Source: Psammoneis japonica (Eukaryota). Taken from it: 64,000 nt of DNA. A program made the position numbers and the translations under genes. The stretch spans positions 62,001 through 126,000 of the forward strand of contig QPGO01000122.1 of the NCBI GenBank assembly GCA_008632985.1. Direction: 5' to 3'. Below, piece by piece: positions 23,701-58,098 of this stretch. Every line of letters starts with the position of its first letter. Within the stretch, counting starts at the first letter, position 1. A model generated the notes under the pieces. That model was given only the letters and a program-made list of their open reading frames with translations. It made no database searches and was not told where the DNA came from.

Positions 23701-23880
23701 CAGACAGTCAGGGCCTCAATGGAATTGTCAAATGACAGGGGAGGAGTTCCCAGCATTGCATCCAACTGGCCCAGCTTGAGACTGAGGGTTTGAAGAACCC
23801 CATGTCATCCAATGTCTTGGGCTGGCGACTCACCTCGCTGCTGCCAAGCTTGATCACAGCCAACCCAAGCAACATTCACC
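20760..23880 (-). mobile_element. Possible heavily decayed non-LTR retrotransposon RT region
   Basis: Minus-strand remnants QLGVPNVC, SVLDDI (YxDD-like) and ASSKLGF occur in RT order; the match is weak and the block is TpA-free. Confidence 0.3.
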
Positions 23881-26499: not shown

Positions 26500-26760
26500 G
26501 AAGGTGCACATTCAGTTTTGCCAGATGCATGTGTGGCAGCATTGTTGCCATTTGGCATTGAGAAGGAAGTGCAAAATCACCAGAGAAACTGCCTTGCAAG
26601 AAGAGAGCTGAGATTTTCACATGGCCAACAACAAAAAATCCAGAGGCAGCTGCAAGTTTTTGTCTTGGTGGCAAGTGGCCATTCTGGAGCAGGCAAGTTT
26701 TCTCTCATTGAAAAGCTGAAAGGGACCAACATGCTTGGAAAGAAATGAAAACAGCATCAT
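26500..26760 (+). pseudogene. Possible decayed P-loop NTPase fragment inside a TpA-depleted block (26290-28070)
   Basis: VLVASGHSGAGKFSL resembles a Walker A motif of the GYSGxGKS type with Y->H; short and stop-terminated. Confidence 0.35.
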
Positions 26761-30169: not shown

Positions 30170-30281
30170 GGCTTCTCGTTTGACTGCCTATTGGAAGGCA
30201 ACTTTCAAAAAGAAAACTGAAGCTTCAGCTCAGAAGGTATGGCTCACTGTGATAGATCCAAGATAATGTCAATGCGGCCCA

Positions 30282-33200
30282 GGTTTTTGGGCAATTTTTT
30301 CATGTTCGTGGCCGGTTAAAGGAAAAGAGAAAAAAAGAGGGGATTCGACCATTGAACACACACACAATTGACCATGCAACCAGGGCCAGAGTTGCACTGG
30401 CTTCTTTTGGTCCAGGGTGGTTGCTGCAGGTGCAAAGAGATGTGACACTGAGTGTGTGCCACCAAGCTGAGCAGCCCAGCTTGGGTGTCAGCCAAGCCCT
30501 GCCAGGCCAGCTGCCCTGGCTCCAGCTCTGCTCATCCCAGTGTGTGCGAATTGTTGAAGGAGCACCACATTGACTCAAAGGCTGTGTTTCAAGTGGGGCA
30601 GAGAGAAAAAACTGTCATCTTGACTGGTGCTTGCTTCAGACCCTGCATCATGAGTGCAAGCTCCTCTTGAGAAATGAGCAAGAACAGCCATTTTTGGTGC
30701 CTCTCTTTGGCTGCCCACTTGGCATTGCCAACAAATCTTGAACCCAACTTCGCTCACAGTTTCTTCACTCTTCAACCACAAAAGCAGGTTCAACTTTTTC
30801 TTTGTGACTGGGGTCGCTGTTGCAGACACAAATGGTGGGCACATGCCATGTGGCTGCTTGGCGACAAGAATGTGATGCCAAGCATGTGATGCACACCAAG
30901 GAGCCAAGCAGCCCAGCTCAGCTTTGAATGGAGCCCCAGGACAGCAGCCAACTCTGGGTGATCTCAGCATGGTTTGCTTGTTCAAGCTGTGCTGCACTCA
31001 CCCCACAATGCTCTGTGTTGTGGTGGCTTCTTGTTGCAAGCCGTGGCTGAGTCAGCAGCCAGCCAGGGGCCCATCTTGCAAAGGCCACACACACATGTTG
31101 ACCCTGTGCAAAGCTGTGTGAGGGGCCAGGCACAGGAATTTGAAACAATGGTGCTTCACAGCCATTGGTCCCAAGTTGTCATTTGGTTGGGAGCCATTGC
31201 TGAGGGGCTGTGAAGTGTGGGGTTGGGAGCCCAGCCAGGAGCTCACACTCTGCCACAAAGTGCTGATGCAGCTGTCTTTGCATTGCAGCCAGCCAGGTGT
31301 GGTTGACCCCAAGTTGGCACGTGATTTAGAGTGACTGCCAAGGAGCTGTGAAGTGTGGGGTTGGGCAGTCCAGCCAGCTCACACTCTTTGCTGACAGCAG
31401 AAAGTGCTGTCGCAGCTGTCCTTGCATTGTGGTGCCAGCCAGGTGCACACATGGCCAGAGCAGCCTTGGCACATCCTGCTGACAAAGCTGGCAAAGATGG
31501 CGACTCTTGTGGTTGAGCCACCTAGCATGCAGGAGGTCTGGGCACACTCCTGGGAAGTCAAATGGGAAGGAGAGCTCAGCATTGCCGCCAGTGCCAGGCA
31601 CAAATGTCAGCTTGTCTTGAGAGAGATTTGAGCCCACACAGCCCCGAGTTGGGTGTCTTGGCTGGCAAGTTAGAAAGCATTCTTGAGCACATTCTGGGAT
31701 GTGGGCAGCACTGTCACCAAGAGAGCTGCTCTGCAGAGGAAGAGGGAAACAGGCAACAACATTTTGCAAGAACTGTTTTGTGTCAATGGTCGGGTGGGAT
31801 GGGGCAGCATCTGGCCTTTGACGGAGCATTTGGTGGACAAAGCTTGAGCACAGAGAGCTGTCCACTCAAGCTCCACAAGTGGCACATTTCAAAGGTGACA
31901 CCAATGTGTTCATGCATCAACATGCCTCAAGCTGCAAGTCACACAAAAAACCACCACCAACCTTTCTCAACCAACCACCATCATGGACAGAACAGGTCAA
32001 GAGGTTCGAAACAAGAGTGATTGCTTCATTGACTCTCTTCTTGTTTCATGCATTCAAGAGCTTGTTCTTGTCCTTCTCAAATGTTTGTTGTGCATTGTTG
32101 TCTCTTTTAATTCAAGTGCAAAGAGGAGTCACTTTTCTTGTTTCTGTCTCTTGAGATGTTGTTGGTTGTTGAGTGATGCAATTTTTGTTGCTTGTCACAT
32201 TTTTGGAAATGTTGGCAAACCCGATCACTGCTTGACTGTCAACCCATTTACTGTTTTAAGTCTCCATGGCATAAAATGCCATAATTCCAGAGCCCTCAAT
32301 TGTTTCATCAAACGCAGTGCTTTGAAACACGTCCAACATCAACTCGACTCAGTTGAAATCCCAGTTTGTGGGCGATGAAAAATCACGAATGTCAAACAAA
32401 TGGCTACTTTCGACATCAAGATCCCCGAGTTCAATCCACATGTGATGGTACGCCTCACAGCTTATGGCCATGACACATACAAGCATGCCTTATTGTTGTC
32501 ATCGCGTATACTCGTATCGAAAATGCCGATAGATCAAAGTTCAGGAAAAGGATGGAATACAAATTCATTTGTGTATTCACTAGAGTGGCATTGGCGTAAT
32601 GACATTTACGGCAGAAGCGATCAAAAATCCTTATTCATCATTGACATTTCTGTATTGCTCAGAATTTGAAATCTGACCACCACCGTCAAGCATTTATTAG
32701 CTTTCTTTGTGTCGAAGTGGAAACGACACTTAACGATTTACACTAACCATTTAGCTTTCTTTGTGTCGAAGTGGAAATGACACTTAACGATTTACATTAA
32801 CCATTTAGCTTACTTTGGCTCGAAGTCAGACAATGAGATTGGGTTATGGGCTTGTCGTTAACCAGCCACGAGCATGAAATCTTTACCGGTTTTGGCAATT
32901 TTTTCATGTTCGTGGCCGGTTAAAGGAAAAGAGAAAAAAAGAGGGGATTCGACCATTGAACACACACACAATTGACCATGCAACCAGGGCCAGAGTTGCA
33001 CTGGCTTCTTTTGGTCCAGGGTGGTTGCTGCAGGTGCAAAGAGATGTGACACTGAGTGTGTGCCACCAAGCTGAGCAGCCCAGCTTGGGTGTCAGCCAAG
33101 CCCTGCCAGGCCAGCTGCCCTGGCTCCAGCTCTGCTCATCCCAGTGTGTGCGAATTGTTGAAGGAGCACCACATTGACTCAAAGGCTGTGTTTCAAGTGG

Positions 33201-35506
33201 GGCAGAGAGAAAAAACTGTCATCTTGACTGGTGCTTGCTTCAGACCCTGCATCATGAGTGCAAGCTCCTCTTGAGAAATGAGCAAGAACAGCCATTTTTG
33301 GTGCCTCTCTTTGGCTGCCCACTTGGCATTGCCAACAAATCTTGAACCCAACTTCGCTCACAGTTTCTTCACTCTTCAACCACAAAAGCAGGTTCAACTT
33401 TTTCTTTGTGACTGGGGTCGCTGTTGCAGACACAAATGGTGGGCACATGCCATGTGGCTGCTTGGCGACAAGAATGTGATGCCAAGCATGTGATGCACAC
33501 CAAGGAGCCAAGCAGCCCAGCTCAGCTTTGAATGGAGCCCCAGGACAGCAGCCAACTCTGGGTGATCTCAGCATGGTTTGCTTGTTCAAGCTGTGCTGCA
33601 CTCACCCCACAATGCTCTGTGTTGTGGTGGCTTCTTGTTGCAAGCCGTGGCTGAGTCAGCAGCCAGCCAGGGGCCCATCTTGCAAAGGCCACACACACAT
33701 GTTGACCCTGTGCAAAGCTGTGTGAGGGGCCAGGCACAGGAATTTGAAACAATGGTGCTTCACAGCCATTGGTCCCAAGTTGTCATTTGGTTGGGAGCCA
33801 TTGCTGAGGGGCTGTGAAGTGTGGGGTTGGGAGCCCAGCCAGGAGCTCACACTCTGCCACAAAGTGCTGCCACAGCTGTCTTTGCATTGCAGCCAGCCAG
33901 GTGTGGTTGACCCCAAGTTGGCACTTGATTTAGAGTGACTGCCAAGGAGCTGTGAAGTGTGGGGTTGGGCAGTCCAGCCAGCTCACACTCTTTGCTGACA
34001 GCAGAAAGTGCTGTCGCAGCTGTCCTTGCATTGTGGTGCCAGCCAGGTGCACACATGGCCAGAGCAGCCTTGGCACATCCTGCTGACAAAGCTGGCAAAG
34101 ATGGCGACTCTTGTGGTTGAGCCACCTAGCATGCAGGAGGTCTGGGCACACTCCTGGGAAGTCAAATGGGAAGGAGAGCTCAGCATTGCCGCCAGTGCCA
34201 GGCACAAATGTCAGCTTGTCTTGAGAGAGATTTGAGCCCACACAGCCCCGAGTTGGGTGTCTTGGCTGGCAAGTTAGAAAGCATTCTTGAGCACATTCTG
34301 GGATGTGGGCAGCACTGTCACCAAGAGAGCTGCTCTGCAGAGGAAGAGGGAAACAGGCAACAACATTTGCAAGAACTGTTTTGTGTCAATGGTCGGGTGG
34401 GATGGGGGGCAGGCAGCATCTGGCCTTTGACGGAGCATTTGGTGGACAAAGCTTGAGCACAGAGAGCTGTCCACTCAAGCTCCACAAGTGGCACATTTCA
34501 AAGGTGACACCAATGTGTTCATGCATCAACATGCCTCAAGCTGCAAGTCACACAAAAAACCACCACCAACCTTTCTCAACCAACCACCATCATGGACAGA
34601 ACAGGTCAAGAGGTTCGAAACAAGAGTGATTGCTTCATCGACTCTCTTCTTGTTTCATGCATTCAAGAGCTTGTTCTTGTCCTTCTCAAATGTTTGTTGT
34701 GCATTGTTGTCTCTTTTAATTCAAGTGCAAAGAGGAGTCACTTTTCTTGTTTCTGTCTCTTGAGATGTTGTTGGTTGTTGAGTGATGCAATTTTTGTTGC
34801 TTGTCACATTTTTGGAAATGTTGGCAAACCCGATCACTGCTTGACTGTCAACCCATTTACTGTTTTAAGTCTCCATGGCATAAAATGCCATAATTCCAGA
34901 GCCCTCAATTGTTTCATCAAACACAGTGCTTTGAAACACGTCCAACATCAACTCGACTCAGTTGAAATCCCAGTTTGTGGGCGATGAAAAATCACGAATG
35001 TCAAACAAATGGCCACTTTCGACATCAAGATCCCCGAGTTCAATCCACATGTGATGGTGCGCCTCACAGCTCATGACCATGACACATGCAAGCATGCCTT
35101 GTTGTTGTCATCGCGTGTGCTCGTGTCGAAAATGCCGATAGATCAAAGTTCAGGAAAAGGATGGAACACAAATTCATTTGTGTGTTCACTAGAGTGGCAT
35201 TGGCGCAATGACATTTACGGCAGAAGCGATCAAAAATCCTTGTTCATCATTGACATTTCTGTGTTGCTCAGAATTTGAAATCTGACCACCGCCGTCAAGC
35301 ATTTATTAGCTTTCTTTGTGTCGAAGTGGAAACGACACTCAACGATTTGCACTGACCATTTGGCTTTCTTTGTGTCGAAGTGGAAATGACACTCAACGAT
35401 TTACACTAACCATTTAGCTTACTTTGGCTCGAAGTCAGACAATGAGATTGGGTTATGGGCTTGTCGTTAACCAGCCACGAGCATGAAATCTTTACCGGTT
35501 TTTGGG
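30282..35506. repeat. Near-identical direct tandem duplication of a ~2.6-kb unit (copy 1 ~30289-32892, copy 2 ~32893-35503)
   Basis: Identical ORF sets offset by 2604-2609 nt; GGTTTTTGGG at 30282-30291 and 35497-35506, GGTTTTGG at the junction (32888); internal ~56-bp and ~140-bp sub-repeats. Confidence 0.95.
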
Positions 35507-36094
35507 TTTTGCGTTGCCCACCATCGCACGGTTTTTTTAGGGGTTTGAGGTTGCGCGCGCGCGCGCCTTGGTGTACAGAAAAAAAGCATGGACGCCTTAC
35601 CATGATACAATGAGGGTAATACCCGATGACATTTTTGAAGGAAGAACCCTTCCGTCCTCGAACTCGTGGGATCGACATTTCTCTTGAATAATGACTGTGA
35701 CATTTCCATGAATTTATGCCACATTCAGTCATTCTTCGTTTTTTGTCTTGAAGTTCACGTGAATTTTCCAAATTCGTCCTCCCCAAAAACTGTCTCCTTT
35801 TTTCATGTTTTCACGTGTTGTTGCATCACGAACATTGAACATGGCACAGTCGTTTTCCATCATTCCATCGCTTTATCTCACCATAGCATCTTCAGACTTC
35901 TCAATTGAGTCTATTGTTACAACTCTACTTAAAAGGAAGGAGACAAACGAAGAAAGCAAAGTGGTCTGCGACCCGCCCACTCACATCAACATAAACGACA
36001 GAGAATTCGGCCCAACGAGTTGGCTGAATCAGTAGGGCTATAAGTACCGGTAGAACGTTCACGAGCCGAAACCACTTCAGAAAATCACTAAGCC

Positions 36095-37525
36095 ATGATT
36101 GACACGGGCAGTTCTTTGAGTGGAAATTGTGGCAAGAGGGGTAACGAGTCAAAGCCACTCATGGAGGAAAAGAAGAGGCAAAAGAGTCCTGAAAACGAAA
36201 AACCCATCAAGCAAATTGCGAGTTTCAGGAGAAGGGTGTCTCAAGTGAACGTGTATCAACAGTATGATGGGATCCTTCGAGAGGAAGTCGAGAGTCTTCC
36301 GATTTGGACTAGATTCGCCATTACGTCGTCTCCACGTGATGTCAGTCAGCAAGAGCTAATCAAGCGATCGACCTTTGTTCTTATTTGCATGCTCAAGATT
36401 TGCTGTTGCATTCCGTGGGCGACGATATACTTTTTTGTTGGTGAAGTGATGGCTGGACTTATGCCTCTTGTCTACTTGTGTGGAGTAGCGTTGAATTTTT
36501 TGGCTTTTGGAAAAGCCTTGATCGAATACAATACGTTTGTTGTTCATCAGCTCTGCTTGATTCTTCTCTGCCCAATCGGAGTTCATGTTGCACTGGGGGG
36601 GCTTATGGAGTCTGGCGGAGTGTTGCTATGGAGTTTTCTTTGCCCTCTTGGTGGTGCTTTCTTTCGTTCTTCAAACGAATCCATCACTTGGTTCAAGATC
36701 TATCTCATGGCTACTCTACCTCTGCTGTTTGGAGAGTTTTACAATTACGACGGAATCACACGAGTTGCGCCCGTCCACGTGTGCAGATTTTGGGTAATGA
36801 ACATTGTTGGCGTCTTGTCCATCATTTTTTGTGCTGCGGTATACTTTTCAAAGGCATTGGAAGCTGAGTACGATCGATCCGAGAATCTTTTGCACAATAT
36901 TCTTCCGAAGAGCATTGCAGAGCGAATCAAAATGGGCGAGAACCCGATCATGGACAAGCACAGTGAAATCAGCCTCTTGTTTACTGACATTGTCGGCTTC
37001 ACTACAGCGGCAGCCACGATGAGTCCCAATATTGTTATTGAAGGCTTCCTGGAGGCATTCTTTTCGGCAACAGATGACGCGGTCGAACGGCGAAGACTAA
37101 CAAAGATCAAAACCATTGGTGATGCGTACATGGTAGCTGGAGGACTGGAGAAAGGTGGTCCTGTAGATCATGCAGTTCAACTTCTGGAGCTTGCTCGAGA
37201 AATGTTTGAGATTCTCGAAAGCGTGAATAGGAGGGTTGGGACCAACTTTGAGATCCGTATCGGCATGCACGTTGGTCCTGTGATTGCCGGTGTGTTGGGA
37301 ACGAACCGGTTCGCATATGACGTATGGGGCGATGCAGTAAATACGGCAAGCCGTATGGAATCTCATGGCAAGCCAGGATCTATTCATTTAAGCGAGAGTG
37401 CACATGAAAAGGTGAAGGGTGTGAAGGGATACAAATTTAGCACAGACGGAGAATCATTTGTAAAAGGCAAAGGGAAAATGACGACTTATTACGCCAAGCC
37501 ACAACCGCTGCCATGTGTGTCTTGA
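36095..37525 (+). CDS. Membrane-bound class III adenylate/guanylate cyclase (476 aa)
   Basis: Multi-TM N-terminus, LLHNILPKSIA linker, LFTDIVGFT, KIKTIGDAYMV, IRIGMHVGPV, YDVWGDAVNTASRMES. Confidence 0.95.
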   Translation: MIDTGSSLSGNCGKRGNESKPLMEEKKRQKSPENEKPIKQIASFRRRVSQVNVYQQYDGILREEVESLPIWTRFAITSSPRDVSQQELIKRSTFVLICMLKICCCIPWATIYFFVGEVMAGLMPLVYLCGVALNFLAFGKALIEYNTFVVHQLCLILLCPIGVHVALGGLMESGGVLLWSFLCPLGGAFFRSSNESITWFKIYLMATLPLLFGEFYNYDGITRVAPVHVCRFWVMNIVGVLSIIFCAAVYFSKALEAEYDRSENLLHNILPKSIAERIKMGENPIMDKHSEISLLFTDIVGFTTAAATMSPNIVIEGFLEAFFSATDDAVERRRLTKIKTIGDAYMVAGGLEKGGPVDHAVQLLELAREMFEILESVNRRVGTNFEIRIGMHVGPVIAGVLGTNRFAYDVWGDAVNTASRMESHGKPGSIHLSESAHEKVKGVKGYKFSTDGESFVKGKGKMTTYYAKPQPLPCVS

Positions 37526-37779
37526 TTTCTGGACAGTACTAACACTTTCATAGACGAGCCCCTTACGTGCTTTACCAATATCGATTGCATCGTTGCATGT
37601 TTCTCGTGGGTCAAAGCCTTCGTGGGCAAGATCTTTGCATGTTTTGCAATTCTGAGTGTTTTTGATGTACAAGCGTTGGTGTGACTGCGTTGCTAGTGTA
37701 GACATGATATTCTACGACATTTGGCAACTCCCCTTGAAGAGAAAGGAAACATAATAAGAGGGGAAAGTGCTGTGAAACC

Positions 37780-37910
37780 GGCCCACCTCACATCAGAAAC
37801 AACAGAAGCATTCGGCCTAACGAGTTGGCTCAATCAGCACAGAACGTTCACGAGCCAAGCCACCTTAGACAATCATCAAGCCATGATTTGACTTGGACAT
37901 TTCTTCGAGC
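37780..37910 (+). pseudogene. Short duplicated fragment of the cyclase 5' region
   Basis: Similar to 35975-36120 (CCCACCTCACATCA...AACGAGTTGGCT...AAGCCATGATT). Confidence 0.7.
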
Positions 37911-37999
37911 CGAAATTGGTCAAAATTGTCATTGCGTGCTTGAGCTGCTCCTGCAGCATGATTTTCTACGACATTTTTCTTCCTTAGCGCACCACCTGT

Positions 38000-40400
38000 T
38001 TGAGTCTGTTTTACCAATGCACTGTTGGCTGCTTGGAGTTTGTCAAAATGGCAGGTGTGATGGATTCAGAGGTGAAATTTGCTGAGTTGGATGACATTTT
38101 TGCTGTCATCAATTCTCAGAGTGTCAACAGAAAGACCGAGATGTGCAAGCAGACAGGGAAGATGCTGGGAGAGGACATCAAGATGTGAGCCACAGTCTCC
38201 ACAGGAACATTGCAGCAGAAGCACCCAGACAAAATTGCCGCAACCAGCTGCCAGGCAGAAGAAGTCAAAAGGCAGCACCAATGCTGTCTCTGTTGCCACA
38301 GCAATGCCTGGCACTTTCTTGCTTGCCACCCTTGCTTGAGCCATGGATGCTCTTGCTCTCACAACTGTCTCCATCGCTGCAGCTGTGCTTGCCATTTTCT
38401 TTTTTGTGGCTCTTGCTGCTCTAGCAGTGCTCTCCTTCACCTTCTCCCCCAACTTTGCACCAGCAGCTGCACTCACATTCATGAACATTTCATTTGCCTT
38501 GACCTTCTCCCTCACCTTCACTTTCCACAGATGGGTGGTCAGAGTCAGAGTCACAGGAGTGGTCTTGCTTCTTGCCATGGACACATCCACAGTGCTGTGC
38601 TTGCCTCTTCTCTTTCCACTCAGTTGGTGACCACATTTTCCTCTGGGTTCACCACCACATGCACAGCTGTCAGAGTTTTTGTTGCAGCTGCCATTGTTCT
38701 CCACCCAGCTGTTGTTGCTGCCATCACAGCCATTGCAACCATCTCCCCCCTCTTTCCACACTGCTGCTTCCTCTCTTTCCTGAGGGACATGAGGGAGAGC
38801 ATGATGTGGGCTTGAAGGCTTGGGAGGACAGCATGTGCAATCACAATGGCAATCACCAAGGTCATTGTAGATGCCAAAGCAATTGTTTTAAAAATGTGTG
38901 AATGCAAGGGATTGACGCCCTGATCAGAGCCAGGCAAAGTGCTCGGGAAAACAGTCCAGCCACCTCTTGGTGCAATCACGACACTTCCTTGCCAAATCTA
39001 CCTCAGTTCCATCTGATTGCAAATTGTGATGCCACATGCAATGCACTCAATGTGAGCCATTTCTAAAAACACAAAAAGAACACTTTCCACATAAATTGTG
39101 TGTGTGTGTGTGTTTGTCCACACATGTGTGTGCGTTTGTGCACAAATTTGCTTGACAAGGCGGCCTTGTTGGACAAATGCTAAAATCTGTTTTTCAATGC
39201 ATGAGTCAAGCCCTGGCCTGACTTTTGACTTGCTGGCAACAATCTTCACATTGCTTGACTTGTCTTGCCATGATTGGATGTGTTTGATGATGAGAGCAGT
39301 TGTGTGCTGTGGATGCTCTTTTTTGTTGTTGCGCTCAACAACAGGAAAGTTGGCACATGTGTTCAATCCAATGCATGCATCAGAACAGCCAAAACTGCAG
39401 ATGATTGAGTTGGGTGCACTGTCATGTCAGTCACAACAGTGAGAGTGCATTTCATGGGACCACCAGAGGTGTGCTTGCTCCCCTCACTCATTCAGTGTTT
39501 CGTCAACAACCACTTCATGGCTCTCTCTGTCATGTTGCCTCACACTCACATGTGATGTCATGTCTTCCAATGAGAACAACAGCGGCACTTCCAGCAGCAA
39601 TGATGATTCAAGCAAGAAGGACAAGAGTCATTGCACCAGCAGTGAATCCACCAGCGGGAGGGATGGACCCAAGAACAAGTGATGATGTAAAAAGACACCA
39701 GCGTTGTCAAAGAAAACTTCTGTGGTGGCCAAGAAAATCCAAAGAAGAGGTCAAACAATGATGCTGTTCTGATGGCTTGCAAGAGAAATGAGTTGAATGT
39801 GCCCAACACTGCTTCCTGTGAGTCTGCACAGAGACAAAAAAGTGCAAATCTGCAGCACGGTTTGTTCTCTTCTTCAGTCAGAAGATGTTGTCTCCGTGCA
39901 CTTTGGCCAAACATTGCAGTCACACAGGAAGCCCAGAACAGGCACTGCCCAATGGGCTGCTGCATCTGAAGTGAGCTGGCTAAAGTGGCTCTCTCTCGCA
40001 GCAGAGAGAGGAGTGCCCACGGAGCTGTCCATCTGCCTTGTCAGGCCTGGGCTCACTGCATGCTGATGGACAAATTGCGTGAAGCACATGTGCCCACTTC
40101 CAATCAATGATCCTCTGCCACTCATCTGTGCTCTGTGCGGGGTTGCCGGTGCCAGTGCCGGCAGAGAGGTGGAGCAGGATGAGCGTGTGTCCCCAGCGCA
40201 CGCTTTCCAGTTGAAGAAAAACGCAACAAGGATTTTACCTTCTTGCAGATGTCAACAGTCCCGGTCATTTGACACTTCCATCACCTGTCTACGATCAATT
40301 GTCTTTAAATCAATGGGCCTGCAGGTCACAACTTGTTTAAACAATCAAAGCTGTCTTCATCGCAGCTCGCCAAAGACCAACCAAAAATTGCAAAAAAAAT
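38000..40400. other. TpA/CpG-depleted degenerate block, unclassified
   Basis: Composition; Tyr-less spurious ORFs; (TG)n tract near 39097-39112. Confidence 0.5.
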
Positions 40401-40544
40401 AGCGCTGAAAACAGTCATAGTTGAAGAAAAACTCAACTAGTTTGCACTGACAAATGCGTGCAATCTACATGTGGGCTACATTTTGACACGTACGACTAAA
40501 ATTCTCCAGCCTTCAACACGATTTTGGAGTGCGCAGGCTCGTGC

Positions 40545-40873
40545 GGTGCTGCGAATTGCGGAACAATTGCGTGACACATGTGCCCGAAGATCGAATGTCG
40601 TTGCCCGAAGCAACAATCATCGTTCGCGCAGATGTCCATTCTACACAGTGTGTGTGGTGTTGAAAATGCCATTGGAGTCGTATGAGTCGTCGCGTGAATT
40701 TCAGGAAATGACCTCTGTGGTGCGGTGCTACGTGATCTACACAAATCGGACATTCTCGAATGCTGGCACATGTTCTACGGTCTCTACGTGCGCGAAGCTC
40801 GAATTTCGTGCCCGAAGCAACAATCACCGTTCGGGCACGTGTATCGCGCAATTGTTCAGCAATTCGTAGTACC
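40545..40873. mobile_element. MITE-like element (~329 bp) with 44-bp terminal inverted repeats
   Basis: 40545-40588 matches the reverse complement of 40830-40873 at 38/44 positions; internal repeat TGCCCGAAGCAACAATCA at ~40602 and ~40809; no clear target-site duplication. Confidence 0.7.
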
Positions 40874-41299
40874 TAAGAAATTGCTGGTTCTAGTTGCACT
40901 TTTCCGCAACTGTCATAGAAATGACCGAAACAATGACTGTGACCCAAAACAGTCCACCGTTGCATAAAAGTGCAACTCCAGGCTCGCGCTGGGGACATGA
41001 TGTGTGTGATGTGTGTCCATGTTCCATGGAACATCATGGGAGTTTTGTCTTTTGAAGTTCACGAGAGGAACTTGAAGATCATTTCACGACTGTTCGTGTT
41101 GTTGTCGTTTTCAATCGTTGGTTTGTTCTTCTTGTCAGCAACCACAACGCACATTGAGCATCAACTTCATTCTCCTCGACTCCTTTGTTGCAACGCTCAA
41201 GCGGAAGGAAGCAAAGCACTGTGCGCAACAAGTGCAAACAATGGGGTCCCCTCTCAGGATCACAATTCACAGTCAAAAGGATTGGGCCAAACACGATTC

Positions 41300-42915
41300 A
41301 TGGCTGCATGGAGGATGACGAGAAGAAGGCGCTCATGAAGGAAAAGAAGAGACAACATGTTGCTGAACCTGATGGCGGATTCATCAATTCCAGCAAGGAG
41401 AGCACGAGTTTCAGGAGAAGGGTGTCTCAATTGAACGTCTGCCAGCAGTGTGATGGAAGCCTTCAAGATGAAGTCAAGGATCTTCCTCTTTGGACAAGAC
41501 TCGCCATTAGGTCGTCTCCACGAGACATCAGTCAGCAAGAGCTCATCGAGCGATCGACCTTTGTGCTGATTTGCATGCTCAAGATTTGCTGTTGCATTCG
41601 TGGGCGACGATATGCTTTTACGTCAGTGAAGTCATGGCAGGATTCATTCCACTTGTCTACATGTCTGGAGTGGTGTTGAACTTTTTGGCTTTGGGAATAC
41701 CGCAATCGATTGCAAAACCTTTGTTGTTGATCAGCTCTTCTTGATTCTGCTCTGCCCCATCGGTGTTCATTTTGCGCTCGGGGGACTTGTGGAATCCGGA
41801 GGAGCAGTGCTGTGGAGTTTTCTTTGCCCTCTCGGTGGTGCTTTCTTTCGATCGTCAAATGAGTCATCACTTGGTTTAAGATCTGTCTCATGGCTGCTGC
41901 GCCTCTGCTGTTTGGCGAGATCTACAATTGTGATGGAATCACATGAGTGAAGCCCATTATGCATGCGGATTTTGGATTGTGAACATTGTTGGTGTTTTGT
42001 CCATCTGTTTTAGTGCCGCTGTTTGCTTTTCAAGAGCATTGGAAGCTGAGCACGATCGATCCGAGAACCTTTTGCACAACATCCTTCCAAAAAGCATTGC
42101 CAAGTGCGTCAAAATGGGAGAGAATCCCATTGTGGACAAGCACTGTGAGATCAGCCTCTTGTTTACAGATGTTGTCAACTTTACGAAAGCGGCAGCCTCA
42201 GCGAGTCCTGACATTGTTGTTGAAGGCTTTCTGGGGGCGCACTGAATTAATCTCACGCATTGGGCGGTGCCCCTGACCCCACTTTCACCCCAGATTGTCA
42301 AAATATGTAAAACACCCCTGTTTTGTAAAACGCCCTAGTAACAAGCAGCGGCTTGGGTCGTCATGGTGCTTTCGACAGTCGAGTCGAGCAGTTTTTGGTG
42401 TTTGCGTGTTCAAATCGCGCGCACTGACAGTGAATGTTCACTTCCGGGTTCCTTTTGGTTTGGGTTCGCCATCAAAAATGACCGACGACAGACCGACGAC
42501 AGACCGACGAATGCTCGAAAAAGCCTGCTACGTAGGATCCTACGTAAGATATAGGGTAATGAGCCAAAATGTGTGTTTTACACGACGAAGCACGTGTTTT
42601 ACAGAATAACANTGAATAGGAGGGTTGGGACAAACTTTGAAATCCATGTCGGAACTCATGTCGGACCCGTTATTGCCGGCGTGTTGGGAACGAACAGGTT
42701 TGCCTGCGACGTGTGGGGCGATGCAGCAAATACGGCAAGCCGTATGGAATCTCATGGCAAGCCAGGATACATTCATTTAAGCGAGAGTGCACATGAAAAG
42801 GTGAAGGACGTGAGGGGATGCGAATTCAGCCCAGATGGGGAATCGTTTGCAAAGGGCAAGGGGACAATGACGACTTGCTGCGCCAAGCCAAAACCGCTGC
42901 CATGTGTGTCTTTGA
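41300..42915 (+). pseudogene. Pseudogene copy of the class III cyclase, frameshifted and interrupted at ~42240-42612
   Basis: Colinear with 36160-37525 (SFRRRVSQ, LLHNILPKSIA, DVWGDA.NTASRMES); several indels; upstream 41040-41200 resembles 35740-35900. Confidence 0.92.
42240..42612. mobile_element. Insertion in the cyclase pseudogene (probable transposon end) terminating at an assembly N
   Basis: Homology to the cyclase stops at ~42235 and resumes at 42613, right after the N at 42612. Contains GACCGACGACA repeats and the 18-bp palindrome TACGTAGGATCCTACGTA (42529-42546). Confidence 0.5.
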
Positions 42916-43926
42916 TTTCTGGACAGTGCCAACGCCTTCGTGGACGAGCCCCCCACTTACTTCACAACTGCCGGCATGCCAATTGCATCGTTGCATGTTT
43001 CTGGTGGGTGTTGCATGAAGCCTTCTTGGGCAAGTTCTTTGCATGAATCTTCAACGATGTGGACAATCCATAAATGGATCCCACAGTCGAATTCTGCACA
43101 CCCGAAAGCATGGGAATCGACAATTCAACTGTTAAAAAAAGTGCCACTGGTTGTTGTCGTGGCCTCTGCTGTAAAATGTGCAGCGTTTTCGCGCATTTTT
43201 TCACCGATTTCTCCCTCCACCATGGCGGAACCTGCGGCTGGCCCCACCGGTGAAGGATGCACACTTCAGCAATCTCGGATGCCTGACAACACTGTCAGGG
43301 AAATGATGGATGTGTCAGAATTGCTTGAAGTGGGAACAGACATGCCTTTTTCGGCTGTTCAAGACATGCCGCGAAATCCTGTGTCAGCAGTGTGCTGCCG
43401 AAGCACCATCTGTGCCCGTGCATGCCCCCCCTCCAAGTCTTCTTGTGGAGTTGCCAGTGGCCAAGAGAGCTTGAGTGTAATTCAAGGTTGTCGCCCATGC
43501 CCATGCAACCAATTTGGAAAAATGCCAAGAAAACATGATGGGCGCAGACAAAGGAGAGGTCAGGCACTGCGGCGAGGGAAGTGTTGCAGGAGGAGACAAG
43601 TTTGCATCAGGAGAGATTGAAAAAAGTTGGTCGCACCTTGCAAAACTGGCGCACCTGCAATTTGTTGCATCACAGTTCTGGCAAGAGATCAAAAGCTCAT
43701 TGTTCCCGGTGTGTGGCTTTGGGAATGGGAGTGTGGGCATTGGATCATGTGCGAGCGCATGCCTGTTGCGCCCGCATGGTGGCTTCTCTGCATGAGATGT
43801 TCTGTGTGCGGTGCAACATTTTTGTTCTTCCTTTTAGTGCACCGCAGCTGCTGAATTGAGTCTGTTGTTTTAACTCCCCTTAAAAAGGGAGGCAACAAAA
43901 GAAGAGAGCAAAGAGCTCTGCAACCT

Positions 43927-44535
43927 GCCCACCTCACATCAGAAACAACAGAATCATTTGGCACAAACGAGTTGGCTCATTCAGCACAGAACCTTCACAA
44001 GCTGAAACCACATGATAAAAACATCAAACATGATTGACATGGACAGTTCTTTCTGTCAGATTATGACAAGAGGGTTGACGAGTCAAATCTGGACCAGAGT
44101 GCTGTTGGAAACAACAGCGCCATCATGCAAAACACAAGTTTCAATGGAAGGGTGTCTCAAGTGTCTGTCAACAGTGTGATGGGAGCCTCCTTCAAGAAGC
44201 AGAGGTGAAGAGTGCTCCAATTTGGGCTGGGCTTGCCATTTTGTCCTCTTGTCACATGGCTTCAGCCAGCAAGAGCTGACCAAGAGAAAAGCCTTTGTCT
44301 CATTTGCTTGCTCAACATTTGCTGCTGCACTCCAGTCCACAAACAATGACATGCTTTCTTGTCAGGGAAGCAATGGGCTGGACTTGTGCCTTCTCTTGTT
44401 TGCTTTTGTGCAGTGTGGCATTGGCTTTTTTGCTTTTAGAGAAGCCTCAACTGACCACAAGATGCCCATCATTCATCATCTCTGTTTGATTTTGTTCTGC
44501 TCAGCCAGTGCTCATGTTGCGTGGCGAGGCTTGTA
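43927..44535 (+). pseudogene. Third, heavily decayed 5' copy of the cyclase gene
   Basis: Colinear similarity to 35975-36605 (ATGATTGACATGGACAGTTCTTT, GAAGGGTGTCTCAAGTG, CAGCAAGAGCTGA, TTCATCATCTCTGTTTGATT); nearly TpA-free. Confidence 0.8.
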
Positions 44536-44539
44536 GAAC

Positions 44540-47100
44540 ATGGTGAGGCATTGCCCCAACATTTGTTTTGTCTCTTCTTGTTCTTTCCATGCTGTCTTTC
44601 TAACTCTGTTGCTGGGTGCCAAACTCTGCCCCTGCTGGTGCCAGCTTCTTTTCAAAGTAAAGAAAATCAAGCACAGGAGTTGGCAACTGACTGCAGCACT
44701 GTCTCAAGGCTTTGGACAGGACTCTTTGCCAGAAGGCCCTGACAAGCAGGATGGCCCATTGACAACACATTTCTCCACCACCTCCACATCACACTTTTGC
44801 AACATCTTTTGAAAGGGGCAAGCCAAACGTCTTTGTGTGTTTCAGTGCTTGGTTGATGCAGGGCCATTCATTGCCCCAGACATTTGTTTTGTATCTTCTC
44901 ATTCTTTCCATGCCATCTTTCCAACTCTGTTCCAAAGAGCAGTTGCTGGGCACCATGCTCTGCCACTGCTGGTGCCAGCTTCTTTTTGAAGCAAAGAAAA
45001 GAGCAGGAGTTGGCAGCTGACTGCAGCGCTGTCTCAAGGCTTTGGACAGGACTCTTTGCCAGCAGGCCCTGACAAGCATGGCCCACTGACAATGCATTTC
45101 TCCACCATCTCCACATCACTCACTTTTGCAACATCTTTTGAAAGGGGCAAGCTGGCTGTCTCTGTGTGTTTCAGTGCTCAGTTGATGCAGGGCCAGAGGG
45201 TCAAAAACATGTGGTCTGCTGTCAAGAACTCTTTTGCCATGCACAGCAGCAGCTGCTCCACTGGGGTGCATGCCTCCATGTGCACAGCTGAAAAGACTGG
45301 AGAGACAAAGCAAAACCCAAATTGTGTGCTTTGGGCACTGCTGCGCTTCCATCCTGCAACTCTGGCAACAAGCCAGTCCACACCTCCAGCAGTGCACATG
45401 TGGTGGTGTGGCAGGAACATGTGGCACTTTGTCCACGTGGCATGCTGGCTGGTGATGCTGTGCCAAAATGACTGGCAATTGTGACACAAGTGCCTCTCTG
45501 GCAGCCAATCTTTTTGCTTCTTGGATTCTCAACTTGATTGCAGGACAAACCATTGTTGACCAATTGTGCAACCTGTGAGTCCAGTGAGTTAGATGTTCGT
45601 CCACTGAATCGAACAAACACATGCACTCTGTTTTGTTGCTGCTGGGCAATCATCATTCACCCTGAAACAAACAGCCTTGACTTCCTCCTTGGTGTCATGA
45701 TGCTGAGAAGACTGCCTGGTTTCTGAATTGTGTGTCCATGCTGAATCATCATGAGAATCCCACAGTCCCCACCACTGGGGCCAGATGCATGCTCCAATCA
45801 TTGCTGCCCCCCCAGCCCAGTTGTCTGTTGCAGTCATCCTGAGCCTGAGATCCAACTGCAGCCTGGTGAGACCACTGAGCCTTGTTCCACAAAACCAAAA
45901 ACCCACCTTTGAAAAGGTGGCACTGCCTTGTGCAATCTCTTGAGAATCTGACACAGCACAGACACTGGGATGAACTTTGTCTGAATGTGACATTTCCTTC
46001 CAAAAACCATTGTGATTCTGTTCCCCATGACGTCAAGTCATGCAGGGCTGGGGAGGTGTCCACATTGTCACATTTCTTTCACAGGCCTTGAAGAAAGGTT
46101 TGATGTCACTGTCTGTTCTCAGGGTGTTGGAGAATGTGTCTTCCATGGGGTGCTGGCAGTGAGCGCAGCAATCCAACCGGGTGGGGCATTGCACCGGTGC
46201 ACCCATGATTTTGTTTGCAGGAAAGAGATCTTGAACAAGCTTGACAGTGTCAACTCTCCATCAAACAATTTGAGACATGTGTTTGGCATGCACCATTCAA
46301 TCAACAGAATCAAAAACACAGTCAGACCAACCAAACTTCTCTTTCATGTGTTTGCAAAGAGGGGGAGCACCTGCTTTGCAGCACAAGACCAACTTGAGCT
46401 TTGCAATGAGGCATTCTTGGTGCCAACAGTGCATCATCACCCAAAAAGGAACCATGGCGCCATCCAGCCAAAAGCAATCTGCTTTCTGTCATTCAGTTTG
46501 GCAGGTGTGGACAGCGACTCACAAGGATCAGAGTCATCCTGATGTGGGACTTTTTACCCAAGAGACAGGCACCAAGGTCCCAGAGTGGTCATTGATGGAG
46601 CATGCTGATGTCTGCTGGAGAGAGTGGAAAATTTTGTGCCGTGTGTTCTGGTCCAGTGCCAAAGTGTTTGCGACAAGATGGCAGCGGGCAAAGTCAACTC
46701 TGGGTCCGGGCCCGGAGAAAAGACCAGACAGACAGAAACTTGTGCTCACAGCTGCAGAAGATTGCACTCTCCCCTGGCTGCCCATGGACAGCTCTCTTTT
46801 CACAAGATGCTGTGCAGCACTTTGCTTGAAAAGCTTGTGTGCCAGGCTTGGCAGGCACAGGGCGCCCTCTCCTCTCTGTTTTGACTTGCGCTGGGGGACA
46901 AGGAGGACGACAGATGAAAAGATGCTTCCTGACATGGCAGAAATTTGGCAAGGACTTGGAAAGACAAGTCCTTTTGATCCCCCCTCTAATCTTCACACAA
47001 AATTGCCACACTGCACCACACCCAGCAGGAGCAGGAAATCCACAACGCGGCACAATGCAGCAGCACTCGCACTCTGCGCGCACGAACCGCAACTTGAAAC
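44540..47100. other. TpA/CpG-depleted degenerate block with an internal ~320-bp direct duplication (~44548-44865 / ~44870-45195)
   Basis: Repeated GTCTCAAGGCTTTGGACAGGACTCTTTGCCAG and flanks; composition. Confidence 0.6.
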
Positions 47101-49217: not shown

Positions 49218-51575
49218 ATGGGAGCAAAATTAACGCTTTTCGTGGCGTTTGTGCGGTATGCCGACACCTTTTCTGTCGTCCCTCCGTGCTTCGGTGGCCG
49301 GCTGCACATGAGAAAAACAACACCATTGCAACAGGCAAGCGATGATTCTTTGGAGGACCTGCGTCGAATTGTAGCGCAACGCGATGCGGATTGGTATCGT
49401 GAATTCGTTGTAGATGTATTGGGAGAAGAATACGAAGCACCGCCAGGAAACAACGACGACACGCATGAGGAACCGACTGAAACAACGAGCGAATCATCAT
49501 CAGTGACAGAGACCGCAACGACCGAACCACTCGATATTGCCTCAAAATCCGAAAAAGAACACCAGGATAACGTCGAAGAATCGTCTAGTTCTGATGACGT
49601 TCATGCTTCTTCACGAGATCCATCTCATGATGTTGAATTACGTCCCGCATCGGATCATGATGATCCGGACAACGCGCAAAGTGAACCCTTCATTATATCT
49701 GATTTCGATAATGGCGTTTCTTCATCAATGCAGTCTCAAGATGAAGATCTGTATCCCAGTCTTAAATTATCCCTTGCAGAGAATGCTGATGTCTTGAACT
49801 GCGAAGAAAAAGAGGAAGAAGAAAATACGAACGAGGCACTCGTCAATATCACCGAACAACCAGAGGCTGAAGCGGATATCGATCCAAAACATCTTAAAGG
49901 TGAAACAGAGGCAACAGAAAAGCGAGAATCGGATAGTTTACAATATAACAAGAATGAGGCAGACGAGGAACCAACCAAAGCTGAAAGACCTCCTCTGGAG
50001 GTTGTTGATGAATCGCCAGTTCCGGTAAAGGAAACAATGAAAGCAAAAGATGAAGCTATACCTCCAACGGAGGTTGTCAATGAATTTCCTGTTCTAGAAG
50101 AGGCTCCATCAAAAGCGGGAGATGAAGATGGAAGACATCCTTTGGAGGCTGCGGATGAACTGCCTCTCCCGGAAAAAGAACCAAAAGTGGAAGAGGAAGC
50201 GAGACCTCCTCTGGAGGTGGTTGATGAATTACCTCATTCACCAAAAGAAGAAGCAAAATCCGCTCGTGAAAGTAGTCTCGATGGTATTAGCCCATCACAA
50301 GTCAGAGACGAAGGAACCGTGTCGCAAGATGTAGTCAAAGAAACGAGCAAAAAGCCACAGGATGAAAGTGCCCACGCAGGGGTTGCCAAGGATCAAATCA
50401 CAGAAAAAGAATCAACAGAGTCGATAGAACTCCAGAACGAAGGCCGACCCGGCAATCATGACAACAATGCGTCAGTATCCCAACCATTAGAAACGGATTC
50501 AGCTTGGAAAGACGACAACGAACAAAACTATGTTGTGGAATACCGAGATTTGTACAGCAAATCCGTCCGAACCGTTCCCTTGACGACCTTGACAAAGCTA
50601 GGATATCGTAAAAGTGAAATACCCTTCTTGCAACCAGATGCTCTCGACTTGATTGTGCAAGACAAGATTCCAAAGCCGTCGACTGGATTGCCTTCTCATT
50701 GGAAGATTTCAAAAAACGTAAAGAAAGTTCTAACCGATGATGTAAGAATTGTCGAAAAAACCAAAAGAAACAAACAGCAAAATGGAGGATCAAACGCCTG
50801 CAGCTTTGACGGAAGACGATCATGAAAAGGATGAGGTTGGTAGGAATGCTACTTTGAGTAGACGACCAGTGAGCGTCCGGGATGAAGACAAGGAGGATTC
50901 TCAAAGGCGGGTACCACCCAGTCAGCAAGAAAAAGGAGTAGACGAGTTGAGCCGCCGGAAAGAAGGGAGAGAAGACGCGAGGAGCCACGGATAGAATCAA
51001 GGAGAGAACGAATGCCCCCAAAGTCAACAAGACGAGCTTCATCACAACCGAGGCCGCAGCGAGCTGAAGCAAGACGACGCACCTCGAACGCGACCAAGCG
51101 AATATATACAGGTCGACGAGGAAAGTCAGTGCAGTTGCCAAGAGGAATTATGCAAAACAATACCCCAAAGAGGACAGGTCCTTGGATGGATATTAACACA
51201 TTTCGAGACTTGTTGAGCGCAGAGTCAAAAATGAGATTACGAATCCTTGGAGAAGGTTGGACGGATGCGGTGCGAGACGAAGCCGACTGGAGGTATTCTA
51301 CCTACGCCAAGTGGTTGGAAATGCTTGATACCGGAGTCGGAGAACCATTGTTTGAGAGTCGTAGTGACAGAGAACGGCGAAGAAAGAAAAAGCCAAGAAC
51401 AAAGAATATGGAGGCGGACTTTGATCCGGGTAGTAGGCGCTCGGCGGAAGGAGAGCCGAGACAACAGACCCCCAGAGCACGACAAGATAGAATTGTCTCG
51501 GATAGACGACTAGACGAGCGCATGAATGCATCAGCCGAGCGTCGCCGAAGAACGAAGGACCACAACCACGAATGA
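49218..51575 (+). CDS. Acidic low-complexity protein with signal/transit-like N-terminus; frame broken by two compensating shifts (~50760 and ~50890-50990)
   Basis: ORFs 49218-50825, 50749-50994 and 51012-51575 abut; the paralogous fragment at 52068-52289 reads RIVEEKKKETNSKMEDQ in one frame, which supports the join. Confidence 0.7.
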
Positions 51576-51959
51576 GAACGGGAGACGCCAGAATCAAGCA
51601 AGATAAACGAACCGAACGACGGAGATAAGAAGAAGCAACTTGTAGCATGCAGCGCCAATGCAATGAGTCCAGATAGAACGTTTGACGTCGGGGTCGATGT
51701 CTTACCGGTATGTACCTGCTATCTCAACCATGATTTTGCACGTCACACATTTGGAGCCATCTTGGAGGCCAAGCAACGGTGATTGCGTGTGATGGAAATT
51801 GAGATACTACTTCTACATTGCTTATACATAACGTGAGTGAAGTTGGGTACGGTTCGATTTTTCCCTCGTGGTCGGATTTGGAAAAGGCTACGAGCGCCGA
51901 TTCGACCGACACTTTCGGAGTTTGAGAAAGCAAACCATTGTTCCATAGAAAGAATGAAG

Positions 51960-52290
51960 AAGATCATAAAATCAAAAGTCTATTCTGGTGCTATAGAAAC
52001 CAGAGGGAGTCTTGATCGATTCAACTTGTTGGGACTTTTCTTCTGGTTTTGCAAGCCATCCTAGTATTTGGTTTCGATAATGACATTTCTTCAATTCCAA
52101 AGCCGTCGGCAGGATTGCCTTCTCGTTGGAAGATTTCACAAAAAGGTAAAGAAAGTTCTAACCAATGAAGTACGAATTGTTGAAGAAAAAAAAAAAGAAA
52201 CAAACAGTAAAATGGAGGATCAAGCTCCTGCAGCTTTGACAGAAGATGAATTTGGAAAGGATGAGCTTCCCGACGTCAAAGATCCTTGAG
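51960..52290 (+). pseudogene. Partial duplicate of 50500-50840
   Basis: ATTCCAAAGCCGTCG..GGATTGCCTTCTC..GGAAGATTTCA and KKVLT.EVRIVE..ETNSKMEDQ.PAALTED are shared. Confidence 0.8.
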
Positions 52291-54770: not shown

Positions 54771-55070
54771 AGTCAGGTCGCGTGGGTCGCGCAGAAGTGC
54801 GCACCGTACAGCACAGTAGCACCCTGTTTCGAAAGAACAACCGTTATATGTTTTAATTAATTTGGACGCCCGGCGCAAAACTCACTTAACAGGTAAAAAA
54901 ATGCAGCAAAATGATTGGTGCAAGCAATCGTCACGCCTCTATTTTCTGATAGCAGCGAGCGCGGCAATCCAAAATCTTTTGGTTTCAGACTTCGAAGTAG
55001 AGAGTTCCCCTCTACCAGCACTAGAGAGAGAGGAGGAACCAACATCGATGGAAAGCTGAGAGTCTGCTCA

Positions 55071-57862: not shown

Positions 57863-58098
57863 ATCTTGGCTGTGAATCGTGAGAGTGCGTTAAGTCGTGC
57901 GTCAAGTCGTGCGTTGAGTCGTCTTGAAATTTGAAAAAAAATCAAAAATCAATCGAAACACGAAAGCTCACGCGATGAGCGATGGAAACATGTTACCGTC
58001 GCACGCGAATCCTCATACGGAAGGCCTTTTCTCCTACTGTACTGTGGAGGATACTGTAGAGAAGTTTCCTGAATACCCAAAGTGCAGTGGATGGCAGA

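Follow-up and report, generated by a model that had tools for sequence, protein, structure and literature searches.

The cyclase gene and its decayed copies

The stretch analysed here, a 64-kb window of the diatom Psammoneis japonica (contig QPGO01000122.1 of assembly GCA_008632985.1, positions 62,001 to 126,000 of the forward strand; all coordinates below are those of the window), carries an intact class III nucleotidyl cyclase gene and a decayed copy of it, the latter lying in a domain from which the dinucleotide TpA (TA) has been lost to TpG (TG) or CpA (CA). We describe this loss, its direction and its recurrence in tracts and young duplicates elsewhere in the window. The features around the cyclase are as follows.

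36095-37525, + strand: intact class III nucleotidyl cyclase gene, 476 codons, the TA-keeping reference copy
41300-42915, + strand: decayed cyclase copy (pseudogene), about 82% identical to the intact gene
41300-42238, + strand: 5' block of the pseudogene, residues ~17-321, with four 1-bp gaps and an in-frame TGA
42239-42612, no strand assigned: high-copy insertion of 373 bp, followed by one N at 42612
42613-42915, + strand: 3' block of the pseudogene, residues 376-476, which close the catalytic domain and contain FACDVWGDAAN
40966-43850, no strand assigned: TpA-depleted domain containing the pseudogene, about 2.9 kb, most CpG retained, left edge sharp
43845-44570, + strand: third cyclase remnant, upstream region and residues ~20-170, inside a TA- and CG-free tract

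On inspection of its open reading frame (ORF), the frame of the intact gene (36092-37525, + strand) is open throughout, and its product joins a membrane-like N-terminal half to a C-terminal half that forms a complete class III catalytic domain (Pfam PF00211, E 5.9e-52, profile positions 4-180 of 183). Its database relatives are at best 41-62% identical, the few named ones coming from diatom transcriptomes, and they show [YF]D[VCI]WG[DN][ATS]VN where the intact protein reads FAYDVWGDAVN; (Y/F)DVWGDxVN is a named motif of class III cyclases. With 48 TA against 103 expected and 68 CG against 75 expected, the gene resembles the others in the window.

The two blocks of the pseudogene align with the intact gene at 82.4% identity (blastn, 36219-37056 against 41405-42238) and at 83.4% by blastn or 82% by tblastn (37224-37641 against 42613-43045). 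Between them, the inserted element stands in place of 167 bp (37057-37223) of the catalytic domain and has no blastn match to the intact cyclase; its summed k-mer depth is 894, against ~60-70 in the flanking single-copy DNA. The copy is thus inactivated by this replacement of part of the catalytic domain, by the in-frame TGA (of CGA origin, at residue 223) and by the four 1-bp gaps, some of which may be assembly indels, because a read-derived contig within 41660-42162 is three letters longer than the window. One-letter differences between the window and the read contigs are mostly an extra A and suggest that the assembly retains some long-read indel errors; caution is due with any frameshift called in the window, and the N at 42612 lies inside the pseudogene. 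TA loss extends across both blocks and beyond them: 11 TA against 63 expected in the 5' block (CG 35 against 53), 6 against 17 in the 3' block, and 6 against 55 in 42916-43850 (CG 36 against 61). The inserted element was spared, with 16 TA against 25 expected and 26 CG against 21. At the left edge of the domain the last TA stands at 40965 and none occurs in 40966-41400, with normal CpG density across the boundary.

Over the 1187 aligned sites of the cyclase pair, substitutions read from the intact gene to the copy comprise 47 A>G and 38 T>C against 27 G>A and 22 C>T. Transitions affect 34 of 98 TpA bases of the intact gene and 52 of its 542 A/T bases outside TpA (odds ratio 5.0, p 2e-9); viewed from the pseudogene, the corresponding fractions are 4/35 and 42/565, with no excess (p 0.33). 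Among the 43 aligned TA of the intact gene, 27 are TG (18), CA (8) or CG (1) in the copy, nine are kept and seven are otherwise changed, and TA differences in the reverse direction number three (binomial p 8e-6). Decay of CpG by C-to-T change was not found as a source of the differences between these copies, as CpG transitions are about equal both ways (18 of 114 CpG bases on the intact side, 20 of 106 on the pseudogene side).

At the protein level, a sequence-only reading had singled out VYQQYDG to VCQQCDG, EAEYDRS to EAEHDRS, AVYFS to AVCFS, FAYDVWGDAVN to FACDVWGDAAN, GYKF to GCEF and TTYYAK to TTCCAK as losses of ancestral TA, and all six changes are present in our translations and codon table. 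Direction was assigned with 18 aligned diatom-like homologues (41-62% identical, 17-18 of them usable per site), every non-synonymous difference being examined. Of the 14 Tyr codons that align, the pseudogene has Cys at 11 and His at one, 12 in all; for comparison, A-to-G change at codon position 2 occurs in 3 of 78 codons with a first base other than T (p 2e-9). At those 12 positions none of the 17-18 aligned homologues has Cys or His, which identifies TA as the ancestral state. The conserved sites are Tyr or Phe throughout: Tyr in 16 of 16 homologues at residue 145, in 15 at residue 465, in 12 at residue 259, in 11 each at residues 112 and 203, and in 10 at residue 408, where the rest have Phe. 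Val415 (GTA to GCA in the pseudogene) is likewise Val in 17 of 17. A polarised test was limited to positions 1-2 of 164 codons, those at which half or more of the outgroups share the residue of the intact gene; there, transitions affect 9 of 27 TpA bases and 4 of the 144 remaining A/T bases (odds ratio 17.5, p 8e-6). Homologues and conserved codons thus bear out the earlier proposal that TA is ancestral and was lost on the pseudogene branch. Its further claim, that classical repeat-induced point mutation (RIP) had not acted on the other copy, stands as well: with a TpA observed/expected ratio (O/E) of 0.47, the intact gene is at the level of other genes, and nothing in the window is TpA-enriched.

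The third remnant is older and more decayed (71% identity by blastn between 35893-36518 and 43845-44447; tblastn E 1e-5), with 6 TA against 53 expected and 5 CG against 38. In a three-way alignment each decayed copy is 70% identical to the intact gene, and the two decayed copies are 59% identical to each other; at 12 sites the intact gene has TA where one or both decayed copies have TG or CA. Both have lost TA at nine sites, with the same product at seven and different products (TG in one, CA in the other) at two. The latter are explicable by single changes only from a TA ancestor, so that polarisation by the third remnant, limited by parallel change, is decisive at 2 of 9 sites. Non-coding flanks were duplicated along with the coding sequence (37726-37905 resembles 43872-44051, and the upstream region 35893-36094 resembles 43845-44060), hence the cyclase copies are DNA-level duplications.

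Young duplicate pairs and TA-depleted tracts

Two pairs of young duplicates in the window carry the same kind of difference. The pseudogene polarises the change validly and with strong statistics, and these pairs are cleaner evidence still.

55071-57532, + strand: mutated copy of the inverted pair, inside an 869-aa ORF (55253-57859), with TG or CA at 23 sites where its twin has TA
59506-61968, - strand: TA-keeping copy of the inverted pair, its ORF split into 60536-61786 and 59137-60672
34989-35429, no strand assigned: freshly mutated patch of 441 bp at the end of the second tandem unit, holding all events of the tandem pair

The inverted copies (55071-57532 and 61968-59506) are 99.0% identical, and 23 of their 24 substitutions set TA against TG or CA, the same copy holding TA at every such site. 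Counted per target, 23 of 88 TA were converted with none in reverse, while all 257 CpG bases are unchanged and a single change fell on the 2029 other bases. The 869-aa protein has no Pfam family, has no relatives among viral contigs and has a single homologue (50% identical) in a search of 5.8 billion proteins. This homologue overlaps four Tyr-to-Cys/His sites of the mutated twin and has Tyr at two and Phe at two of them, in line with the Tyr of the TA-keeping copy, so that a second protein family is polarised in the same direction as the cyclase. That the mutated twin keeps the longer open frame is expected, because the process cannot make TAA or TAG.

The inverted 2.46-kb repeats flank a gene for a RusA-like Holliday-junction resolvase (58060-58722; PF05866 E 8e-11, phrog_140 E 5e-13), and the whole 55071-61968 unit may be a mobile or virus-derived element; a PHROGs search with 10 ORFs returned the RusA-like gene, one family of unknown function and nothing else. 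Just upstream of the mutated twin, 53001-54000 has 6 TA against 66 expected and 48 CpG against 57 expected, as if a single domain of TA loss extended over ~53000-57500 with decreasing intensity.

The tandem pair (30285-32893 and 32890-35502) is 98.7% identical, and 18-19 of its 27 substitutions (19 by dinucleotide tagging) again set TA against TG or CA; 18 of 39 TA were converted with none in reverse, whereas two changes fell on the 86 CpG bases and seven on the 2443 bases of other kinds. Within the patch at 34989-35429, 18 of the 27 TA of the twin patch (32380-32820) have become TG (12) or CA (6); none of the 36 CpG bases differs, and three of the remaining 351 bases do. The first 1.7 kb of these 2.6-kb units were already TA- and CG-free at the time of duplication, the end patch being altered later and in the second unit only.

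Dinucleotides were counted against expectation over this one 64-kb window in 256 bins of 250 bp and in 1-kb bins. Gene-like DNA has a TpA O/E of 0.43-0.7 and a CpG O/E of ~0.9-1.2, whereas 74 of the 256 bins are depleted in both dinucleotides (at most two TA and at most three CG); a further 29 are TA-depleted with CpG kept, and the converse, CpG lost with TA kept, occurs in five.

13501-23750, no strand assigned: largest both-depleted tract, TpA and CpG nearly gone
9001-10500, 26501-28000, 30501-32250, 33001-34750, 38001-40000 and 44001-47000, no strand assigned: other both-depleted tracts, by dinucleotide counts
15838-15855, + strand: peptide LAHPDF, occurring once in six frames, read earlier as a Gypsy-type reverse transcriptase/RNase H junction motif

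Over 13501-19500 we count 25 TA against 394 expected and 33 CG against 348, together with 727 CA against 414 and 661 TG against 331. The depleted tracts as a group have a CA/TG O/E of 1.8-2.0 and a CpG O/E of 0.05-0.1, and the former is the sum of the gene baseline (~1.15) and half of the lost TA (0.55) and CG (0.95). The CA/TG excess therefore equals full conversion of a normal TA and CG content. At 1-kb resolution, many bins have a TpA O/E of 0.00-0.10 and the maximum is 0.78. Unconstrained flanks of the intact cyclase keep gene-like TA (21 against 46 expected in 35500-36094, 17 against 36 in 37526-38000), and TA is not depleted in the high-copy elements at 40201-41000 and 42201-42600. The high-copy short elements at 40545-40873 and 35001-35800 reach summed k-mer depths of 4228 and 6876, against ~60-70 for single-copy DNA, and have normal TA and CG, the loss having left these repeats alone; the former is bounded by 44-nt inverted arms (40545-40588 and 40830-40873).

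Pfam searches of 45 long ORFs, of 112 ORFs of at least 85 aa from depleted tracts, and of frames read through stops (six frames of 14000-23502 and eight shorter pieces) found no retroelement or transposase domain. The sequence-only reading had also drawn support from a Gypsy remnant, on the strength of the peptide LAHPDF, which we take to resemble the usual LAYPDF; with no Pfam retroelement domain at that place, this part of the argument could not be confirmed.

Several other features lie at or between the tracts. A PLD-like ORF fragment (12557-13147; PF13091, under the curated cut-off) stands at the edge of the large depleted tract, and an RMKL-like methyltransferase-domain gene (28496-30187; PF01170, E 1.4e-15) lies between two depleted tracts. 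Base composition is skewed at 13001-15000 (GC skew -0.29 to -0.42, AT skew -0.22 to -0.38) and at 50001-52000 (AT skew +0.27 to +0.33). Near the right end, 62146-63500 is GC-rich (0.54-0.58) and repetitive, with several direct repeats 75-87% identical; both strands carry long open frames rich in Pro/Thr/Ala/Ser, and TA and CG are reduced.

Properties and possible cause of the TA loss

To describe sequence context, the three polarised data sets (the cyclase and the two young pairs) were pooled. Conversion of A affects 56 of 189 T-A-pyrimidine sites and 13 of 127 T-A-purine sites (odds ratio 3.7, p 3e-5), and the base 3' of the converted A in the 67 events is T in 32, C in 23, G in 6 and A in 6, that is, a pyrimidine in 55 of 67. 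The motif YTAR (pyrimidine-TA-purine), an unfavourable context on both strands, accounts for 47 of the 95 TA left in depleted tracts and for 84 of the 657 TA of gene-like DNA (p 1e-18 by chi-square). The two products are unequal (44 TG against 23 CA, p 0.014), and T-A-pyrimidine sites were converted at 42 of 111 on the + strand, the sense strand of both the cyclase and the 869-aa ORF, against 14 of 78 on the other (p 0.004). This bias, seen at three loci on one contig, hints at exposure linked to transcription or replication.

Relative timing can be read from the same loci. Because the element at 42239-42612 keeps its TA, the attack on TA either preceded its insertion or spared it. The young events show no CpG loss, the pseudogene shows some, and in the old tracts it is complete; TA and CpG losses are separable in time because young TA events occur without CpG change, and the loss of CpG is a process of its own and a slower one, for which the decay of methylated CpG would be the simplest explanation. 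Since only one twin is affected and high-copy elements are spared, the process is not repeat-induced in the RIP sense.

The tracts were compared with contigs built from a public sequencing run, here called X1, which contains 73% of the sampled words of 38001-47000 and gives contigs with a k-mer depth of ~60.

38240-39194: X1 contig, 6 differing letters over 955 bp
39214-39924: X1 contig, 3 differing letters over 713 bp
43651-44467: X1 contig, 2 differing letters over ~820 bp
45123-47000: X1 contig, 6 differing letters over 1878 bp

These contigs reproduce the tracts nearly letter for letter, and the TA-free tracts are therefore not a consensus artefact of the assembly. Two further runs, X2 and X3, contain shares of 0.05 and 0.00 of the sampled words and cover 14 of 30 and 2 of 30 bins. 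At 41158-41526, contigs from X1 and X2 differ from the window at 17 places, among the best-supported differences listed; at nine of these the contig has TA, and at three CG, where the window has TG or CA, and at position 41526 the read contig agrees with the intact gene. X1 depth at these places is 60.7 of 90.1, and 34.6 of 63.9 at five places. A less-mutated allele or copy thus coexists in the sample with the version in the window, which suggests recent or ongoing activity.

Taken together, these data favour, at a probability of about 0.82, a regional one-way hypermutation of TpA to TpG or CpA that hit the domain of the pseudogene (~40966-43850), with TA ancestral and with the same process acting elsewhere in the window. 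The comparisons above show directly the signature and its polarity, its restriction to regions and to one copy of a pair, and the preferred sequence context. As proposed, the process makes A:T-to-G:C transitions at TpA only, within targeted domains, and has struck one copy only of each of two young duplicates; older tracts would have reached saturation, with CpG also gone, probably at a later time and a slower pace by ordinary methylated-cytosine decay. It would act in episodes, with sharp domain edges and a preference for T-A-pyrimidine, the young element in the pseudogene being untouched. Its chemistry could be an enzymatic deamination of adenine in DNA; the resulting hypoxanthine would be copied as G in the following round of replication, and a TadA/ADAT-like deaminase is a possible agent. 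To this assignment we give somewhat less than an even chance; targeting may follow silent chromatin or foreign DNA and not duplication as such.

Several points weigh against this explanation or parts of it. Synonymous cyclase differences cannot be polarised with homologues only 41-62% identical, so some of the 27 TA differences may have arisen on the branch of the intact gene; three sites differ in reverse. The seven of nine same-product sites in the third remnant fit context-steered parallel change and also a shared ancestor of the two decayed copies. Run X1, whose library type is not on record, possibly comes from the same sample as the assembly and is not fully independent of it. As to foreign DNA as the target, no transposon or viral Pfam domain was found in the depleted tracts, and the pseudogene is a copy of a host gene; a RusA-like gene adjoins one target. 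As to chemistry, deamination of adenine on one strand is indistinguishable from a reaction of the paired thymine, and adenine deamination, thymine oxidation and repair bias are all possible.

Among the rivals, thymine chemistry survives best, unlikely as it is. Here a TET/JBP-type oxygenase would turn the T of TpA into 5-hydroxymethyl- or 5-formyl-uracil, which mispairs with G, and enzymes of the same class, acting on 5-methylcytosine, would account for the accompanying loss of CpG. Both TA and CG targets would then be 5-methylpyrimidines in a pyrimidine-purine step, old tracts lose both dinucleotides with both ending as CA or TG, and T-to-C change on one strand reads as A-to-G on the other; against it, the CpG bases of the young events are unchanged where TA was lost (0 of 257, 0 of 36), and the sole experimental precedent, a preprint on the alga Bigelowiella natans, favours an adenine deaminase, without proof (Mettrop et al., bioRxiv 10.64898/2026.01.13.699255, 2026).

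An untargeted process is improbable. If TpA were hypermutable genome-wide and selection retained TA in genes, unconstrained DNA would drift TA-poor, and TpA is indeed scarce even in genes (O/E 0.43-0.59) and the pseudogene unconstrained. Over an equal span of time, however, one duplicate lost 23 of 88 TA and its twin 0 of 88, though the twin is the one with the broken frame; moreover, intergenic flanks and the inserted element retain gene-like TA, and the left edge at 40966 is abrupt.

A bias of repair carries slightly less weight still: TA loss would be a side effect of biased T:G-to-C:G mismatch repair in methylated chromatin, or of GC-biased gene conversion. The loss of CTAG in E. coli, attributed to very-short-patch repair, offers an analogy, the change here is from AT to GC, and the old tracts look methylated (CpG O/E 0.05-0.1). 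Other A/T contexts are nearly unaffected, however (1 of 2029 bases outside TA and CpG), and TA bases changed at ~0.13 per base where other bases changed at 0.0005, a wider gap than biased repair of infrequent replication errors could open; change of TpG to CpG, the context preferred by such enzymes, is not elevated, and CpG falls instead of rising.

An artefact, from the misreading of modified bases during sequencing or from wrong handling of them in the consensus, is very improbable, despite long-read-type indel differences (single A insertions), one N in the window and the consideration that strand-specific miscalls at a palindromic step might give CA/TG in a graph consensus. The B. natans signature came from Illumina data, according to that preprint; the X1 contigs with their k-mer depth of ~60 reproduce the tracts, and the pseudogene and the duplicates differ also at other sites and by indels.

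Two remaining explanations are barely credible. Editing of double-stranded RNA by ADAR followed by reverse transcription, leaving edited retrocopies, is countered by the non-coding flanks included in the cyclase duplications, by the 441-bp patch affected by itself at the end of a tandem unit, and by the pyrimidine that follows the edited A in 55 of 67 events, which does not match the 3' G that ADAR prefers. A-to-G clusters with U 5' of the edited A are nevertheless typical of ADAR, according to the Discussion of the preprint (bioRxiv 10.64898/2026.01.13.699255). A RIP-like C-to-T change at CpA/TpG, striking the intact cyclase and those duplicates that have TA, would make TG and CA ancestral. 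It involves exactly the dinucleotides of fungal RIP, and an unpolarised comparison is blind to direction, but the intact gene must then have gained its conserved Tyr by mutation when homologues have Tyr or Phe, never Cys or His, at 12 cyclase sites and Tyr or Phe at four sites of the 869-aa ORF, and a CpA-to-TpA process would give TA-rich tracts, of which there are none among the 1-kb bins (maximum TpA O/E 0.78).

Comparison with known systems

The closest counterpart to the hypermutation proposed here comes from mutation-accumulation lines of B. natans, where, according to the preprint, the targets are integrated nucleocytoplasmic large DNA virus (NCLDV) and virophage regions; two integrated viral regions took 231 of the 302 nuclear mutations that arose, and 230 of these 231 were A-to-G or T-to-C changes, all at TpA (Mettrop et al., bioRxiv 10.64898/2026.01.13.699255, 2026). 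The same text gives a rate of ~6e-7 per site per generation, ~1000x the background and in some lines only, counts 124 TpA-poor, CpA+TpG-rich clusters in the genome, and proposes an ADAT2-like DNA adenine deaminase; a natural activity of ADAT2 on DNA is cited here through this source (bioRxiv 10.64898/2026.01.13.699255). It reads the process as the opposite of the usual AT-biased spectrum and as genome defence. The near-exclusive A-to-G/T-to-C change (23 of 24 and 18-19 of 27 substitutions in our young pairs), its restriction to TpA and its confinement to regions changed at rates far above the rest are all found in this window, as are the TpA-poor, CpA+TpG-rich clusters left behind, and the process, episodic here, is not constitutive there. 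There are also differences: the host is a stramenopile here and a rhizarian there; TA loss is saturated here (0-10 TA per 1-3 kb), against a TpA Rho of 0.45 in the B. natans NCLDV region; and a host-gene duplicate and one copy of each young pair are targeted here, with CpG loss in the old tracts and a measurable preference for a 3' pyrimidine. That TA loss can be separated from CpG loss is likewise new here. New mutations were observed directly in B. natans, whereas here the process is read from sequence comparison, and the main text of the preprint makes no mention of diatoms, CpG or trinucleotide context.

Further afield, AID/APOBEC hypermutation and kataegis resemble the process in being an enzymatic, clustered and context-specific editing of DNA directed at mobile or viral sequences, with strand asymmetry also seen here; those enzymes, however, edit C and lead to a gain of AT, whereas here A (or its paired T) changes and GC is gained. 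The TadA/ADAT tRNA deaminases and the base editors derived from them act on an A preceded by T and favoured by a 3' pyrimidine, as here, although their natural substrates are tRNA loops and the target here is chromosomal DNA. The edited A34 of tRNA follows the invariant U33, and bacterial TadA reads U-A-C-G. Decay of methylated CpG explains the CpG O/E of 0.05-0.1 in the old tracts and part of their CA/TG excess, but cannot remove TpA, and it is unlike the young events and, largely, the pseudogene, where TA is lost and CpG kept; methylation of transposons is known in diatoms.

RIP in Neurospora and other ascomycetes is similar in its burst-like, context-specific transitions that disable duplicated or mobile DNA and in the CpA/TpG/TpA trio involved. 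It creates TpA, whereas the process here removes it, and it mutates both copies of a repeat, whereas here one copy took 18-23 events and its twin none; neither of these defining features of fungal RIP, C-to-T change at CpA giving TpA-rich DNA and mutation of both copies, was found in the window. Furthermore, with no means of making TAA or TAG stops, the process here leaves mutated frames open, as in the 869-aa ORF.

Full-text literature searches returned no report of such a process in diatoms and, for a natural, domain-targeted A:T-to-G:C change at a single dinucleotide, only one prior report, that on the rhizarian alga (bioRxiv 10.64898/2026.01.13.699255). The window adds the same signature in a stramenopile, together with an internal time series that runs from fresh one-sided events through a half-converted pseudogene to saturated tracts, with direction established independently from two protein families, and the T-A-pyrimidine preference narrows the search for the enzyme. 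If general, such a process would bear on repeat annotation in diatoms, where decayed elements escape domain searches, on the reading of dinucleotide biases and GC-biased substitution, and on sources of natural DNA adenine deaminases. Tentatively, we suggest that diatoms and chlorarachniophytes, perhaps protists of the stramenopile-alveolate-rhizarian (SAR) group generally, may share a regionally targeted adenine-deaminase defence that edits T-A-pyrimidine in silenced or invading DNA. In that event every TA would be removed, Tyr, Ile, Leu and Val codons rewritten and TATA-type and AT-rich signals destroyed, by a process still active and variable between alleles in the P. japonica genome; duplicates of host genes would be affected as well, and the evolution of gene families would be shaped as it is by RIP, with the opposite outcome in composition.

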